Virus record (IMG/VR): IMGVR_UViG_3300036546_000172
Coordinates: 73,943 to 137,942 of that record
Direction: 5' to 3' (one strand)
DNA length: 64,000 nt
DNA from: a virus
Lineage: Duplodnaviria; Caudoviricetes
The notes below the pieces were generated by a model, which worked only from the letters and a program-made list of their open reading frames with translations, was not told where the DNA came from and did no database searches. Positions 5,853 to 49,384 of this stretch are shown one piece after another. Both the position numbers and the translations under genes were made by a program. How positions within the stretch are numbered: the first letter of the stretch is position 1; every line of letters starts with the position of its first letter.

Positions 5853-7109
5853 ATGGATTCTTATAGACAAGCTCTTCAGTACTGCCGAGATGGTTTGTTA
5901 AAAATGACAGACGATGGCGAGGGTCATCGTCTGTTCTGCTACACCAAGTCTTGCTTTTTTGGTAAAGATACATGGGACGATGTCACTAAGACTCATCGCG
6001 GCAAGCTGTACTATGAGAACAAGCCCGTTAATCACCCATTCACTAAGATCTTTAACGTAGATGAAGTTACAGAGACTGAGCATAACCTCATCTACAATCG
6101 CATGCAGAATGAACCATACGAGATCCTAGATAAGGCTAATGGACATTTGTTCATAGTATCGATGTTCCAGGACTCCAAAGGTGAGCAGCACGTGGTATTC
6201 TCTACCAAGGGCTCAATGCCGAACCCCGAGAACGATCTACTGAATGATGACATTCGTATATTCGCTCACAAATACTCAGAACAACTGGATAAGCTGTGTT
6301 TTGTGATGCCTAATGTTACATTGATGTTTGAGGCTATCGTCGCTCATGATAAGCACTCAATGTATGATCTGCAGGTCGAGCAGTATGGATCTGAAAACGA
6401 CTTTGTTCTGCTCGGTGCTGCAATCAACCTAGGACGCGAGCACATCGACCTCGGTAACGAAGATGAGTTAAAGAACATCCAGCATTCAGAGCACAATACA
6501 ACTACACTGGCTGACTATCCGTGGGTAGAAAGTGATTGGCACCAATTGTTGAAGCTATCACATTTCATCGGTTGTCCTGTTGTCCATTGCTACGATTTCA
6601 TTGAAGGCTCACCTGAGACCTGGAAAGAGCATACTGATCGTGAAGGTTATGTGATTCGTTTCCTGACAGATAACGCAAGAGTTAAGATCAAGACTACTGA
6701 ATATTGGAAGAATCGATTCAAAAAAGATCTGACACCTGAGGTATTATTATCTACGTTCGCTAAAGGCGGAGCTGCATTGATGCAGGAGAAGATCGCTAAC
6801 AAATGCATTGCTAAAATCGAAAGTTATTTCATCTCATGGTACATGGATGATCTGATTCGATGGAAATCTGAAGTGCTGCCATACCTGAAACAGAAGAACA
6901 ATCAATTGTCATCTAAAGATCGCAAATGGCTGTTCACTGAATCCTACTTCTGCAGTTTCCAGCGTCAATACATTGCAGCGATAGTAGATGGTAAGAATCT
7001 GGATATCACACAGAACAAAACTCTGCGTCAGATGTTCGTAGATGATGTAGCTCTTGAGCGTGCAGATATCAAACAATCGCTTGAACAGATTGTAGTGAAT
7101 GCTCTATAA
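5853..7109 (+). CDS. RNA ligase 1 (T4 RnlA-like)
   Basis: KIFN, motif I DKANGH, FE, EGYVI and KIK nucleotidyltransferase motifs. Confidence 0.8.
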   Translation: MDSYRQALQYCRDGLLKMTDDGEGHRLFCYTKSCFFGKDTWDDVTKTHRGKLYYENKPVNHPFTKIFNVDEVTETEHNLIYNRMQNEPYEILDKANGHLFIVSMFQDSKGEQHVVFSTKGSMPNPENDLLNDDIRIFAHKYSEQLDKLCFVMPNVTLMFEAIVAHDKHSMYDLQVEQYGSENDFVLLGAAINLGREHIDLGNEDELKNIQHSEHNTTTLADYPWVESDWHQLLKLSHFIGCPVVHCYDFIEGSPETWKEHTDREGYVIRFLTDNARVKIKTTEYWKNRFKKDLTPEVLLSTFAKGGAALMQEKIANKCIAKIESYFISWYMDDLIRWKSEVLPYLKQKNNQLSSKDRKWLFTESYFCSFQRQYIAAIVDGKNLDITQNKTLRQMFVDDVALERADIKQSLEQIVVNAL

Positions 7110-7112
7110 TGA

Positions 7113-7637
7113 ATGAAACGTGAGGACATAACTATGATATTTTTAATGAGAGCTACCACTTGTTCAGGCAAGAGCACATTCATTGCTCAAAACTTTCCTA
7201 ATTCAAATGCAGTATTCTCATCAGATGATTTCCGTGAGATGCTGACCGGTGATAGGACAAATCAGCAGTTCAATAAGCGAGTGTTTGAGATCATGCATTC
7301 GATTATTGACTTCCGTCTGCACAATCGAGCTGAATACACAGTGTATGATGCTACTAATCTGCGCATTCGTGATGCTTCAATGATGATCGAATTGTCCAAG
7401 AAACATCAGATTCCATTGACGGTGATTTCAATCGAACCTCCTACACTGGATGAACTGATCAGACGCAACCGCATTCGTAATAACGAGACTGGATTCAACG
7501 TACCTCAGAATGTGATAGAGAAGCATCTTCATCGATACTATGAGTGTATGGATCCTTTCTTGGAGGAGAGTAAAAATAATCTTCTGTTCAAGTTTATTGA
7601 GATAAACCAAGATCATGAGGTGATTCGTGAAGTATAG
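7113..7637 (+). CDS. polynucleotide kinase (P-loop kinase domain)
   Basis: CSGKST P-loop, SSDDFR, DATNL and RNxxR motifs of Pnk kinases. Confidence 0.8.
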   Translation: MKREDITMIFLMRATTCSGKSTFIAQNFPNSNAVFSSDDFREMLTGDRTNQQFNKRVFEIMHSIIDFRLHNRAEYTVYDATNLRIRDASMMIELSKKHQIPLTVISIEPPTLDELIRRNRIRNNETGFNVPQNVIEKHLHRYYECMDPFLEESKNNLLFKFIEINQDHEVIREV

Positions 7638-13812: not shown

Positions 13813-13998
13813 ATGAAGGATTCTATCGAGCAATGGCTCAAAGAGCTGGAGCCTCTGAGTTCACAGCACCAAGATCTGATGGAAAAATATACGACCGGGT
13901 CTGATAATGTTTCATTGAAGCAAATAGATCAGACATTCAGAAAGATGAAGCCACTGATGAAGCAGCTCAGAGCTGCAGCTAGGAGTGATCATGATTAA
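13813..13998 (+). CDS. hypothetical protein
   Basis: AAGGAAGG RBS; 61 aa. Confidence 0.55.
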   Translation: MKDSIEQWLKELEPLSSQHQDLMEKYTTGSDNVSLKQIDQTFRKMKPLMKQLRAAARSDHD

Positions 13999-14455
13999 CG
14001 TTGAATATACTAATGCAGAATTGGATCATATGTTGATATCCAGAGAAGCTGATGTCATTGCTGTTGGTATGAACTGCTTTCATCACATGCTGGGCATCAA
14101 CAACCGGTTAAACAAGATGACCGGCGGTCAACTGATTATGACAGACTATCAAACACCATACGCTGATATCAATAAACTCGGCACTCAGATATCCATCGAA
14201 GAGTCTATCTTTGGTCATCGTATTCAATTGGCTCTGCTCTATGTCAGTTACACCATAGCATCAGATGATCATAACTGCATCCATTATGTCTCGTTGTATG
14301 ATTCGTTGGTCAGTCTGATCTCTGAGATGGAATCTGGACAGACGTTGTGTTTGCCGGTTATAGGCAATCCTGAATCTTTTAATCAGGCGCTGGACGTGAT
14401 TGTCAGTGAATCAGACGATCTGCCTGACATCAATATTTTGGTATCGAGGACGTGA
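13985..14455 (+). CDS. degenerate macrodomain-like protein
   Basis: DVIAVGMNCFHHMLGI and LPVIG resemble DIIVHGCNCFCTMGSGI and IPKIG of 42060..42578. Confidence 0.5.
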   Translation: MIMINVEYTNAELDHMLISREADVIAVGMNCFHHMLGINNRLNKMTGGQLIMTDYQTPYADINKLGTQISIEESIFGHRIQLALLYVSYTIASDDHNCIHYVSLYDSLVSLISEMESGQTLCLPVIGNPESFNQALDVIVSESDDLPDINILVSRT

Positions 14456-14456
14456 C

Positions 14457-14921
14457 ATGCAAATTATGTTTATGAGTCGACATGAGTTTACAAATTTATG
14501 CTCTCAACTAAATTCGACACAATCGGCTATCATCTCTATCTCAGATAATACCGAAGAGATGGAAGAAATGCAGCGGCTGGTTGAGACGCAAGCACCAACT
14601 GCACGTGTCATCTACTTGGCGTTTCAAGACGTAGATGATCATGATTGTGGTGGAATCACGAACAATCAAGCTCGTAAGTTGTTCAAATTCATCAAGCAGA
14701 ACAATGACTGCTCGTTCTATGTGCATTGCTTTGCAGGTGTCTCAAGGTCGGCGGCTGTTGCAAAGTTCATTCAAGAATATTACGATGTACAAGGCACAGT
14801 TCTTGAAAACTACAGGATCTATAACAATCGAGTATTCAGCAAGCTGATGTCGTTTGTAGGATCTATGAGTATCGAAGACTATTATCGTCAACTGGAAGCA
14901 GAGGAGCGTGGTTATGAGTGA
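14457..14921 (+). CDS. dual-specificity/tyrosine phosphatase-like protein
   Basis: HCFAGVSRSAA (HCx5R) motif. Confidence 0.85.
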   Translation: MQIMFMSRHEFTNLCSQLNSTQSAIISISDNTEEMEEMQRLVETQAPTARVIYLAFQDVDDHDCGGITNNQARKLFKFIKQNNDCSFYVHCFAGVSRSAAVAKFIQEYYDVQGTVLENYRIYNNRVFSKLMSFVGSMSIEDYYRQLEAEERGYE

Positions 14922-16136: not shown

Positions 16137-16220
16137 GGGGGAGTGGTGAAATGGCAGACACAGCGGTGTTAAGTACCGTCGCCTTAGCGCGTGTGGGTTC
16201 GAATCCCACCTCCCCCACCA
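16137..16220 (+). tRNA. tRNA-Leu(TAA)
   Basis: GGGGGAG/CTCCCCC acceptor, loop GTTAAGT, long variable arm, TTCGAAT, CCA. Confidence 0.88.
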
Positions 16221-16225
16221 AACAA

Positions 16226-16256
16226 CTCCCGATAGCTCAGCTGGATAGAGCAACAG
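16226..16256 (+). pseudogene. 5' fragment of a tRNA (Arg-like D arm)
   Basis: CTCCCGA-TAGCTCAGCTGGATAGAGCAACAG stops at the anticodon stem. Confidence 0.6.
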
Positions 16257-16380
16257 AGACAACAAAGCCTCGCGCTAGCTCAATTGGATAGAGCACCTCC
16301 CTTCTTTTGTGCATTCGTGTAGTGTACAAAAGAAGGAGGTGGTTACTGGTTCGACTCCAGTGCGCGAGGCTTTGTTGTCT
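16257..16380 (+). ncRNA. tRNA-Arg(TCT)-like RNA with 27-nt anticodon insertion and extended acceptor stem
   Basis: 19-bp perfect terminal inverted repeat; intact D and T arms; removing 16306-16332 restores loop CTTCTAA; no CCA. Confidence 0.75.
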
Positions 16381-16435
16381 TTAAAAATACAAAATATGAT
16401 TCCCACTCGGGAATCCAATATAAGATAGGTGACAT

Positions 16436-16714
16436 ATGAATTCACATTTGAGTTTACTCGGATGCCGAGCAAGAGATAAAGTAACAGGTATCGAAGGTGT
16501 GGTAACTACTGTATCATTTGATTTGTACGGTTGCATTCAAGCAGTACTGACTCAGAAGGCAGATGAGAAAGGTGAGTATAAGATGTCACCGTGGTTTGAT
16601 GTTACACGCCTTGACATCGTTGACCATAACCCGGTTATGACACAGCCGAACTTTGAACTGGGATATGTTGCAGAAGGTAAGAAGGGAGCTGCAGAAAAAC
16701 CTCAGCCTATGTGA
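16436..16714 (+). CDS. hypothetical protein
   Basis: AGGTGA RBS; 92 aa. Confidence 0.7.
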   Translation: MNSHLSLLGCRARDKVTGIEGVVTTVSFDLYGCIQAVLTQKADEKGEYKMSPWFDVTRLDIVDHNPVMTQPNFELGYVAEGKKGAAEKPQPM

Positions 16715-17782: not shown

Positions 17783-17871
17783 AGAGAGTGATTCCAGCTG
17801 GTGCTGGAGACCGCCTGCTAAGCGGTTCGCCTGATTCATCGGGTGTGGTTCAATTCCACCGCTCTCTGCCA
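17783..17871 (+). tRNA. tRNA-Ser(GCT)
   Basis: loop CTGCTAA, long variable arm, G73, CCA. Confidence 0.88.
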
Positions 17872-17872
17872 T

Positions 17873-17971
17873 GGAGAGGTAAGCCGAAAGATCCGGGGTA
17901 GCGGCAACGGTCGTGAAAACCGAGGGTTTACGAAAGTAGACGTCAGGGTTCGAATCCCTGTCTCTCCGCCA
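17873..17971 (+). tRNA. tRNA-Ser(TGA), enlarged D loop, G33
   Basis: loop CGTGAAA, long variable arm, CCA. Confidence 0.8.
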
Positions 17972-18352: not shown

Positions 18353-18737
18353 ACAAACATCATTGAGGTAGTCTCTAGGTGAGTTAACGGCCATTGACTC
18401 ATTGAGGATTGGCGGAATAAAGTCGGAGGTCTTGGGCTTAACGCACGTTCAAAGAGGTGGTTCTCGGTCATCTATCAAATGGTAGATGACGCAGTCTGAA
18501 AAGGCTTGAACGGTTCCTTGCATACACTACAGGCTACAGACCCTACTCTGTTAAGCATGTCAACAGTTCTCTCACCCTCATGCATGACTTGAAGATATTC
18601 TTCATAGTCGATGTCTGGCAACAGATGAGACAACAGATGACCAATCTAAGTCAGTCAGAGTCAACAAAGAGAGATGCAGGGGTGTTGGTAATAAGCTAGT
18701 CCAGCATTCTCACAGAGACTACCTCAATGATGTTTGT
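18353..18737 (+). ncRNA. large structured ncRNA of unknown class (385 nt)
   Basis: perfect 24-bp closing stem, many internal hairpins with G-U pairs, long-range complementarities; no + strand ORF. Confidence 0.75.
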
Positions 18738-48286: not shown

Positions 48287-49384
48287 ATGCGTAAACTAGT
48301 AACTATCCGAGAAGTTAAAGAAGTTCGACCAATTGAAAAGGCTGATGCTATTGAGTGCATTAGTGTTGATGGATGGACCGTTGTTTCAAAGAAGGGTGAA
48401 TTTCAACCTGGAGACAAATGTGTCTTCTTTGAAATTGACTCCTTTCTCCCTGCCGATGACGAAAGATATGCTTTTCTCATTAAGGGTGGTGTGAAGAAAG
48501 ATCCATCCGGAAAAGAAAGGATTCGACTGAAAACAGTTAAACTACGAGGTCAGTTGTCTCAAGGTTTGGCACTACCAATTAAGCTATTCCCCGAGTTGAA
48601 ATATTTTCTTCAAGGTGAAGATGTTTCTAGTGCTCTTAATGTAATCAAATATGAAAGGCCAGAACCAAAAACGGCAAATGCCGCTGGTCATTTCCCTGAC
48701 TTTATTAAGAAAACCGATGAAGAACGTATTCAAAATGTCTATGATGACTTCAAAGAGTTGTATAAGAATACAGACTACTACGCAACAATGAAATTGGATG
48801 GGTCTTCATGTACTGTGGCATTTTTGAACCAAAATATGTCATGGCACTGGAGAAATGAACCCGAATATGAAGTCATCAAAGATTCTAATAAGATCGGGGA
48901 ATTCAAAGTTTGCTCACGGAATCTTGAATTGAAACCCGACCCAGAGTCTCACTTCTACAAAGCAGTATTGTCTGGTGGTATTGTAGACAAGGCTCGTCTG
49001 ATTTCAAAAGAACTTGGGTGTTCGGTTGCTATCCAAGGTGAAGTGATGGGGCCAGGTATTCAAGGTAACAAAGATAAGTTTAATGACTATCAGTTTTTTG
49101 CATTCAATATCTTCAACATTGACAAGCAAGAATACTTACCGTATGCATTTGTTTTGGAACTTTTCAATTACTTTGGGGTTCAACAAGTACCACTGATCAC
49201 ACAAAATAAAATTAAACCATTTACTTTGTTTGGTACTCTTGGTAGTATGTTGGACTATGCGGATGGTTACAGTATCAATTCAGATTGCCGAGAGGGTATT
49301 GTAATGAAGCCTGCATGTGGAGCATCTGGAGAAAGTTTCAAAATTGTTTCAAACAGATTTTTGATGAAAGGTGGTGATGAATGA
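48287..49384 (+). CDS. RNA ligase (DRB0094/Rnl5-like, N-terminal OB domain)
   Basis: LRGQLSQGL, KTDEER, KLDGSS, QGE, EGIV and SFK motifs. Confidence 0.88.
   Translation: MRKLVTIREVKEVRPIEKADAIECISVDGWTVVSKKGEFQPGDKCVFFEIDSFLPADDERYAFLIKGGVKKDPSGKERIRLKTVKLRGQLSQGLALPIKLFPELKYFLQGEDVSSALNVIKYERPEPKTANAAGHFPDFIKKTDEERIQNVYDDFKELYKNTDYYATMKLDGSSCTVAFLNQNMSWHWRNEPEYEVIKDSNKIGEFKVCSRNLELKPDPESHFYKAVLSGGIVDKARLISKELGCSVAIQGEVMGPGIQGNKDKFNDYQFFAFNIFNIDKQEYLPYAFVLELFNYFGVQQVPLITQNKIKPFTLFGTLGSMLDYADGYSINSDCREGIVMKPACGASGESFKIVSNRFLMKGGDE

Follow-up and report, generated by a model that had tools for sequence, protein, structure and literature searches.

A tRNA-Arg(UCU) gene interrupted by a hairpin in a T4-like phage: a candidate for tRNA maturation by RNase III and a phage RNA ligase

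The stretch of DNA analyzed here (64,000 nt, from here: the window) is the right-hand 64 kb, positions 73,943 to 137,942, of IMGVR_UViG_3300036546_000172, a complete virus record of 137,942 bp with direct terminal repeats. Judged by its matches to a RegA-type translational regulator, a clamp loader and the RNA ligases Rnl1 and Rnl2, the phage is T4-like. Its tRNA cluster contains a tRNA-Arg(UCU) gene whose anticodon loop is interrupted by a 27-nt hairpin and whose acceptor stem is prolonged by a stalk formed from the flanking sequences. In an ARAGORN run at default stringency over the 137.9-kb genome, this interrupted gene is the sole tRNA-Arg, and AGA makes up 25% of the arginine codons in long open reading frames (ORFs). 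Here we describe the gene, the class of hairpin-interrupted genes to which it belongs, and a possible route of maturation involving host ribonuclease III (RNase III) and a phage RNA ligase.

The interrupted gene and its nesting in an older tRNA gene

All elements of the unit lie on the plus strand. The outermost are the 5′ stalk arm (16255–16268) and the 3′ stalk arm (16369–16382), which in the predicted fold form 14 contiguous pairs, namely 12 perfect ones (16257–16268/16369–16380) followed by a G16256·U16381 and an A16255-U16382 pair. The 5′ exon (16269–16305) provides the 5′ strand of the acceptor stem, the D arm with G18, G19 and A20, the 5′ strand of the anticodon stem, C32, U33 and the anticodon U34 C35 U36. 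It is followed by the intervening sequence (16306–16332), a hairpin with a 10-bp stem and a 5-nt loop, whose 3′-terminal AG pairs with C35 and U36 and whose stem carries a U·G pair at position 9 and a U-A pair at position 10. The 3′ exon (16333–16368) continues with A37, A38, the 3′ strand of the anticodon stem, the variable loop, the T arm and the 3′ strand of the acceptor stem, and the 3′ stalk arm then begins with G73 C74 and has no CCA.

The gene escapes the usual tools. ARAGORN gives no call at its default settings, and a search with the Rfam tRNA family (RF00005) reports nothing for 16269–16368 even at E ≤ 1. If introns are allowed (option -i), ARAGORN calls a tRNA-Arg(tct) with the insert given as i(38,27); a covariance model described below finds the same exons. 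In the genome, the anticodon loop contains 27 extra bases, and an uninterrupted 7-nt loop appears only upon conceptual deletion of 16306–16332; ARAGORN calls the remaining 74 nt as a clean, intronless tRNA-Arg(tct). The acceptor stem (16269–16275/16362–16368) and the D and T arms are intact, G18 G19 and the T-loop consensus are present, and the anticodon arm is extended by the insert to 19 bp with two G·U pairs and a bulged C32. The minimum free energy of the 124-nt unit is −72 kcal/mol compared to −33.4 ± 3.4 kcal/mol for 200 shuffled sequences (z = −11.2), none of which folded as well. Recognition of tRNA-Arg by arginyl-tRNA synthetase (ArgRS) relies on A20, C35 and a purine at position 73 according to the rules established for E. 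coli. All three identity positions are kept, with A20 in the GGATA motif of the D-loop and a G at position 73, and the respective columns are conserved in the class alignment described below.

An earlier note on this DNA, made from the letters alone, had already described the intact arms, the arginine anticodon arm restored by deleting 16306–16332, the arm of about 19 bp with two G-U pairs and one bulge in which the insert pairs with the anticodon, and 12 additional perfect pairs on the acceptor stem. ARAGORN and the fold agree with this description, identify the bulge as C32 and extend the stalk to 14 pairs. The absence of CCA, also pointed out in that note, sets the gene apart from all 12 other tRNA genes of the window, each of which encodes CCA at its end. 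None of these 12 has a flank stem exceeding 5 bp, making the unit at 16257–16380 the only one in the window that combines a stalk with a missing CCA.

The surroundings of the unit revealed a nested arrangement that the note had overlooked. Only 6 nt past a tRNA-Leu(UAA) gene, the segment 16226–16254 (plus strand) constitutes the first 29 nt of a second tRNA-Arg, comprising the acceptor 5′ strand, the D arm and the first bases of the anticodon stem. BLAST searches with 16143–16254 matched adjacent tRNA-Leu and tRNA-Arg genes in Klebsiella (jumbo) and Morganella phages; in Morganella phage MP1, positions 8–29 of the tRNA-Arg(tct) are identical to the remnant at 22 of 22 bases. On the other side of the unit, direct reading of 16398–16417 (plus strand) shows the second half of a T loop, the 3′ strands of the T stem and acceptor stem, a discriminator base and a CCA ending in the style of the resident tRNAs. 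Its acceptor strand pairs at 6 of 7 positions with 16226–16232; the same stretch can also form a local hairpin of 7 bp. Both ends of the older gene still flank the unit, and the sequence indicates that a foreign cassette, consisting of stalk, tRNA and intron, has taken the place of the middle of a resident tRNA-Arg gene. The cassette was probably gained by recombination into the earlier tRNA-Arg gene of the phage. No Pfam or PHROG match supports a homing endonuclease adjoining the cassette.

A class of hairpin introns in tRNA-Arg(UCU) genes

Two pattern scans over viral contigs and a single scan of metagenomes, together with a cloverleaf parser, yielded further genes of the same design. For this analysis, we defined the class by an insert located directly after U36 and ending in AG, a bulged C32 and a helix continuous with the anticodon stem. 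In phage and metagenome contigs, it comprises 25 distinct genes, among which 23 different introns occur; in the narrower of the two viral scans, which was run to completion, 15 of the 27 pattern matches were members. One specific metagenome pattern search gave no matches. All class introns follow U36, start with a pyrimidine, end in AG, leave C32 bulged and continue the anticodon stem. Their length is 23–30 nt in 24 of the 25 genes and 38 nt in the remaining one. With the covariance model R1, members score 71–100 bits and ordinary tRNAs at most 66 bits. The window gene has all the features of the class and reaches the second-best score (99.7 bits). CCA is encoded in four of the 25 members and the stalk is absent from most, hence the stalk and the missing CCA are features of a sub-lineage and not of the class.

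A structural alignment of 15 diverged members has 95.4% of its cells paired, and 100% in the acceptor, D and T stems; these sequences were fitted to the model, which raises the pairing to some degree, an influence much smaller than the observed effect. Both sides change in 30 of the 35 pairs, none of 500 shuffles reached the observed values, and slid controls were 38–50% paired. The ten pairs of the intron stem all vary with compensation, and covariation extends over all four cloverleaf helices as well as the intron helix. The same architecture with compensatory changes in related phages was what the earlier note had proposed to look for, and its view that the sealed gene does not look like random decay is borne out by this recurrence and covariation. 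The insert is neither unique nor without covariation, the two traits that the note had expected of a pseudogene.

Some phages that carry members of the class have been cultured and represented in GenBank since 2003, with the gene labelled as tRNA-Glu or tRNA-Lys. Aeromonas phage PX29 possesses one, with homologues in the phages AsFcp_1, AsFcp_2, AsFcp_4, Ah1, avDM12-TAAL, Aeh1 and phiWae14. In this clade, hairpins of 26–28 nt and differing sequence stand between the same stalk arms; the stalk sequence is invariant and the tRNA body is variable. The PX29 gene appears in RefSeq as a two-piece ‘tRNA-Lys’ and the Aeh1 gene is annotated as ‘tRNA-Glu, UUC’. The Aeh1 genome paper by Nolan et al. lists no tRNA-Arg(UCU) and three pseudo-tRNAs (PMC1524935). 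Aeromonas phage phiAS5 has the same locus with the stalk and a closely similar tRNA body, in which the plain loop CTTCTAA occurs without an insert, at the point where six related Aeromonas phages carry their hairpins. This loop is exactly the loop predicted for the spliced product and therefore fixes the splice register at 36|37. Moreover, the presence of the stalk without the insert in phiAS5 shows that stalk and intron are separable features.

The maintenance of the intron-bearing genes as tRNAs implies removal of the insert, and we consider it probably a real, spliced intron. As far as can be judged from sequence, the window gene is a working gene and not a decay product.

Several other candidates were considered and rejected. 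Giant-virus and alga-virus-like contigs from the first scan were excluded for their ordinary introns at 37/38. The tRNA-Arg(tct) at L007:2267–2360, on a 138.6-kb viral contig, at first seemed to follow the same design, with a 12-bp flank stem and a 3 × 3 loop between this stem and the acceptor stem. It was excluded since its 21-nt insert is located at 37/38 and has bulges around a 4-bp helix, resembling a bulge-helix-bulge; it represents another intron type, possibly one of an archaeal or eukaryotic virus. ARAGORN calls of several members as tRNA-Leu or with another intron site were rejected, since the bodies are class I and Arg-like and phiAS5 fixes the junction.

Among 120 matches listed for prokaryote genomes, a strict parser found no members and a relaxed parser found two, both on short contigs of metagenome-assembled genomes (MAGs). 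One is a class-like hairpin-intron tRNA-Arg(tct) on a Woesearchaeota MAG contig (L250). The other (L289, G009:C52:4297–4397) lies in a duplicate tRNA cluster on a 4.4-kb contig of a 1.9-Mb MAG that has an ordinary tRNA-Arg(tct) on a separate 71-kb contig and no Rnl1 match; this locus may be a mis-binned phage fragment or a prophage. Another observation concerns three members, L013:5743–5841, L084:3420–3516 and L305, in which clearly different tRNA-Arg bodies (D arm, acceptor) harbor a 100% identical 26-nt intron, which suggests transfer between alleles or a very strong constraint on the intron sequence.

The PX29 genome (G001) contains one further tRNA-like element (84043–84162, minus strand), which has a closed acceptor-type stem of 16 bp and lacks CCA; besides two T-arm-like hairpins, it displays an ‘anticodon’ loop of 4 nt. 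The 9-nt words of the window stalk recur in the stalk of this element, on opposite arms.

RNase III-like sites, phage ligases and a proposed maturation

For this class, a particular nuclease and a particular ligase are suggested by the sequences. With regard to the nuclease, the splice sites deduced from the tRNA alone are staggered by 2 bp. As far as geometry goes, both products would end in 2-nt 3′ overhangs, the hallmark of RNase III, and a G-C is one of the two pairs between the sites. At RNase III sites used in vivo, a G-C is usually found among the two pairs between the cuts (PMC6212723). RNase III acts on about two turns of helix, coaxial stacking allowed, and its minimal E. coli substrate has an 11-bp helix from cut to loop (PMC1540722). 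The class introns, hairpins of 9–12 bp with a 2-nt tail, lie around this minimum; in the window gene, the anticodon/intron helix measures 19 bp and the stalk together with the acceptor stem 19–21 bp.

Further resemblance was found to R1.1, an RNase III site of phage T7, and its minimal derivative uR1.1. Counted from the cut end, R1.1, the sequence of which was confirmed in the T7 genome, has a U·G pair at stem position 9 and a U-A pair at position 10. The cleavage coordinate underlying this count, which we take from the T7 literature, agrees with the paper on the minimal substrate; no annotation confirms it. The same step, U·G at 9 and U-A at 10 from the predicted 5′ splice site, is present in 13 of the 23 introns including that of the window, and it was not imposed by the search patterns. 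In the minimal substrate, U-A/U·G is the optimal distal box, with a stringent U·G whose change to G·U has a 50-fold effect in uR1.1. The window intron and R1.1/uR1.1 have in common the geometry of the 2-nt 3′ overhang, the distal box at 10 and 9 and an A/U-rich proximal box with a G-C at the inner end, and they are similar in a helix of about two turns. In the window intron, the four pairs beside the cut are G-C, U-A, U-A and U-A, close to the preferred proximal box.

The stalks show the same step. Three unrelated stalk sequences, those of the window, of L088 and of the Aeromonas clade, carry U·G followed by U-A on the 3′ arm, in the orientation demanded by the twofold symmetry of RNase III. 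If the R1.1 register is applied to the L088 and Aeromonas stalks, the predicted cuts coincide with −1/+1 and with the 3′ side of nucleotide 74, in most of these genes a C. Such cuts would account for the unusual C1:G72 pair, the usual C74 and the missing CCA of these genes, and stalk cutting by RNase III might create the tRNA 5′ end without RNase P. In the window stalk, the step is located two pairs further out, with predicted cuts at 16266|16267 and 16372|16373, and final trimming would therefore be needed. In sequence and pairing, hairpin and stalk alike resemble sites of RNase III.

The phage encodes enzymes suited for the sealing step. An Rnl1-type RNA ligase of 418 aa (5853–7109, plus strand; PF09511, 44.2 bits, cut-off 28.3) is the candidate sealing enzyme; T4 Rnl1 seals breaks in anticodon loops (PMC3014915). 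Directly after it, at a distance of 4 nt, follows a gene on the same strand for a P-loop kinase of the AAA_33 family (7113–7637; PF13671, 51.1 bits), which in view of its position and family is possibly a polynucleotide kinase and has no recognizable phosphatase domain. Together, the two genes (5853–7637) resemble the T4 Pnk-Rnl1 repair pair in a split or reduced form. A second ligase, Rnl2-type and 365 aa long, is encoded at 48287–49384 (plus strand; PF09414, 70 bits; PF21189, 113 bits). Genes for EndA, RtcB and RNase III are absent from this phage and from PX29, whereas archaeal controls were positive for PF01974 (EndA). The ORF at 14400–14921 is weakly similar to dual-specificity phosphatases, below the Pfam cut-off. 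Contig G003 (148.7 kb), in which the tRNA-Arg(tct) is normal and an RNA ligase is missing, was considered as a control and dropped, since only 38 of 336 ORFs are in common with the phage genome.

From the computed architecture, recurrence, covariation, insert-free allele and enzyme content, we infer a course of transcription, two nuclease cuts, ligation and end trimming. The gene is probably co-transcribed with the upstream tRNA-Leu, and the precursor would present two long helices, the 19-bp anticodon/intron helix and the 7-bp acceptor stem stacked on the stalk of 12–14 bp. Host RNase III would cut both. In the anticodon helix, the cuts would occur at 16305|16306, after U36, and at 16332|16333, after the last G of the intron, so that the 27-nt intron leaves as a hairpin whose 3′ end overhangs by 2 nt, and U36-3′OH and 5′P-A37 come to lie side by side. 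The Rnl1-type ligase of the phage would then seal this nick to the 7-nt loop CUUCUAA. The stalk cut at 16266|16267 and 16372|16373 would open the sealed acceptor end, and RNase P, 3′ exonucleases and the CCA-adding enzyme of the host would complete the ends. The earlier note had listed a pro-tRNA matured by cleavage and re-ligation as one option. It is the one we favor, considering the covarying class, the phiAS5 loop, the set of Rnl1, kinase and Rnl2 genes and the RNase III-like sites. That both functional ends are sealed, as the note had put it, is true of the pairing, and the two closed helices are better read as two nuclease entry sites. We assign a probability of roughly one half to the specific reading that the window gene is the sole tRNA-Arg(UCU) of the phage and is matured through cutting by host RNase III and sealing by a phage ligase.

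Several observations weigh against this reading. The stem of the window intron is 10 bp long, one less than the 11-bp helix from cut to loop needed in the minimal E. coli substrate (PMC1540722). About half of the members have a C-G pair beside the 5′ cut, and a G-C pair at this place lowers cleavage of that substrate. Ten of the 23 introns lack the U·G/U-A step at 9–10. Natural RNase III substrates do not conserve the sequence of the distal box (PMC3867540), so that the U-A/U·G match is suggestive and not diagnostic. The link to the ligase rests on few complete genomes, those of the window phage and the PX29 clade; among five further intron-bearing contigs, which are only 29–67% complete, Rnl1 was found in two and no ligase match in three, and T4 carries the same ligases and no intron. 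Finally, the invariant Aeromonas stalk also fits a role at the DNA level, as a recombination boundary or as inverted repeats in cassette exchange, and the identical intron of L013, L084 and L305 fits such exchange as well.

If the insert is a true intron, its removal might be due to other enzymes. The evidence for function and splicing from phiAS5 and from covariation applies equally here. A kinase gene directly follows the ligase gene and a phosphatase-like ORF lies at 13985–14455, neither of which RNase III ends would require; 10 of the 23 introns do without the U·G/U-A step, and many ORFs near the tRNA cluster belong to no known family. Nevertheless, no EndA-type enzyme is present in the phage, RNase Z is expected to cut one nucleotide before the deduced 3′ splice site, and it would be left unexplained why the splice sites are offset by 2 bp, why intron lengths vary so little around the minimum for RNase III and why three stalks share the wobble step. 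We therefore regard removal by other enzymes as unlikely, although it is the most serious competitor to RNase III cleavage.

It is rather improbable that the RNA is never spliced and acts as a closed tRNA-shaped molecule, for example as a decoy for tRNA-binding defense nucleases or modification enzymes. Base pairing of both functional ends would suit such a role, and phage tRNAs that counter tRNA-targeting defense systems are known (e.g. PMC11464382). A decoy has no need, however, for exact halves of the anticodon loop, for A20 and C35 or for a perfect 7-nt loop that can be restored. The phiAS5 allele at the same locus is an ordinary tRNA, some members have CCA and no stalk, and no tRNA-Arg(UCU) other than the intron-bearing one was found in the phage, just as no ordinary one is listed for Aeh1. 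The mimic or decoy put forward in the earlier note gains nothing from these data and offers no explanation for a cloverleaf and ArgRS identity kept by compensatory change.

Least probable is a dead gene or a DNA-level feature without a role as RNA, whether a palindrome from local inverted duplication or an inverted-repeat cassette that disrupted the resident tRNA-Arg: the unit does sit within a broken tRNA gene between inverted repeats, the Aeromonas flanks and bodies behave as expected for cassette boundaries and the shared intron hints at DNA-level movement, yet decay would not keep 95% pairing with compensation in every helix including the intron stem, a length of 23–30 nt in 24 of 25 genes or a stalk structure across three different sequences, and an origin as a mobile cassette is compatible with maturation by RNase III and ligase.

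Extending the proposal beyond the window gene, we tentatively suggest that T4-like and other large phages may possess a third kind of tRNA splicing, distinct from both ribozymes and bulge-helix-bulge introns, in which host RNase III excises a minimal hairpin from the anticodon loop, an Rnl1-type ligase of the phage rejoins the exons and, in some lineages, the stalk is cut as well.

Relation to known systems and further elements of the tRNA cluster

To our knowledge, self-splicing (group I) introns are the only tRNA introns generally attributed to bacteria and their viruses, and protein-dependent splicing is considered a matter of archaea and eukaryotes. The literature searched contained no description of the hairpin intron class or of RNase III-dependent tRNA splicing. 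New are the nesting in a disrupted resident gene, the stalk sub-lineage, the wobble step in the R1.1 register in both helices and the phiAS5 control. If the proposal is true, tRNA splicing gains another route and RNase III a function not described before, possibly including RNase P-independent formation of tRNA 5′ ends, and phage RNA ligases acquire a physiological substrate and a routine job beyond damage repair. The supply of the AGA-decoding tRNA would then depend on phage gene expression, and the nested cassette would show how tRNA gene cassettes move between phages. As standard tRNA finders miss or mislabel hairpin-intron genes, phage tRNA inventories and arguments based on codon usage are biased. 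The hypothesis is testable with the available phages Aeh1, PX29 and Ah1, for which phiAS5 is a natural insert-free control.

The closest precedents among phages are the ‘enigmatic’ tRNA introns that Devoto et al. (2019, PMC6784885) described in Lak megaphages; no previous account of introns in phage tRNAs was known to these authors. Both are short anticodon-loop inserts in phage tRNA genes that are not group I introns, occur in alleles with and without insert and may be identical across genomes. In contrast, the published Lak example, a tRNA-Thr intron, is itself tRNA-like and belongs to 540-kb Prevotella phages, whereas the introns described here are plain 23–30-nt hairpins at 36/37 of tRNA-Arg(UCU) that resemble RNase III sites and occur mostly in T4-like phages; this contrast is drawn from the published description.

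Bulge-helix-bulge introns, spliced by EndA/TSEN together with RtcB/Trl1, are likewise short, lie beside the anticodon, pair with it and need an endonuclease and a ligase. Also, tRNA-Arg(UCU) is a common carrier of protein-spliced introns, and the giant-virus contigs in our scan show the 37/38 type. A bulge-helix-bulge consists of two 3-nt bulges, which contain the splice sites, on either side of a 4-bp helix. The phage class differs in its position at 36/37 instead of 37/38 and in a helix that is continuous except for C32. This single 1-nt bulge, found in the minimum free energy fold and in the class consensus, agrees with the earlier observation that the window gene has no bulge-helix-bulge. 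Unlike in protein-spliced introns, EndA and RtcB are missing from the phage and the ends expected for the phage class are 3′-OH and 5′-P.

Group I introns, found in genes of bacteria and phages, also interrupt the anticodon loops of bacterial tRNAs and coexist as intron-plus and intron-minus alleles (PMC3984707), but they are ribozymes of about 200 nt or more (P1–P9). The insert in the window measures 27 nt and an Rfam search of the region matched no intron family, in accordance with the note, which had judged it too short for a group I intron.

Stalks processed by RNase III flank the 16S and 23S rRNAs, and intervening sequences occur in the 23S rRNA of Salmonella. As in these rRNAs, the mature RNA of the window gene is enclosed by a stalk of its own flanks. 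After excision of the intervening sequences, the rRNA fragments are not rejoined. We know of no RNase III site within a tRNA anticodon loop, nor of one that is re-ligated after the cut. Re-ligation itself has a parallel in the repair of PrrC-cut tRNA-Lys by T4 Pnk and Rnl1 (PMC3014915), where a phage ligase seals an anticodon-loop break; a ligase and a neighboring kinase are present here as well. The break in T4 is damage inflicted by the host, whereas here it would be a programmed step of maturation, after which the RNase III ends would need no healing.

Within the tRNA cluster of the window, further elements attracted attention. The class II tRNAs at 17787–17871, Ser(gct), and 17885–17971, Ser(tga), are both missed by ARAGORN at default stringency and found when stringency is lowered. 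The former matches the Rfam tRNA-Sec family with 59.8 bits (cut-off 47) and the latter scores weakly; both are probably ordinary tRNA-Ser genes, not selenocysteine tRNAs. A non-coding stretch of about 385 nt (18353–18737) is closed by a perfect stem of 24 bp (18353–18376/18714–18737, verified), in which the U·G/U-A step is absent. Inside this stalked stretch, 18379–18549 matches the manA RNA motif below threshold (33 bits, cut-off 55). Directly 3′ of the tRNA-Arg cassette lies an ORF for 92 aa (16436–16714) of unassigned function that belongs to phrog_37639; a search starting from a second neighboring ORF found no relatives. The phrog_37639 ORF has a homologue with 78% identity within the tRNA cluster of the otherwise unrelated phage contig G003 and is perhaps a small gene that moves together with tRNA clusters.

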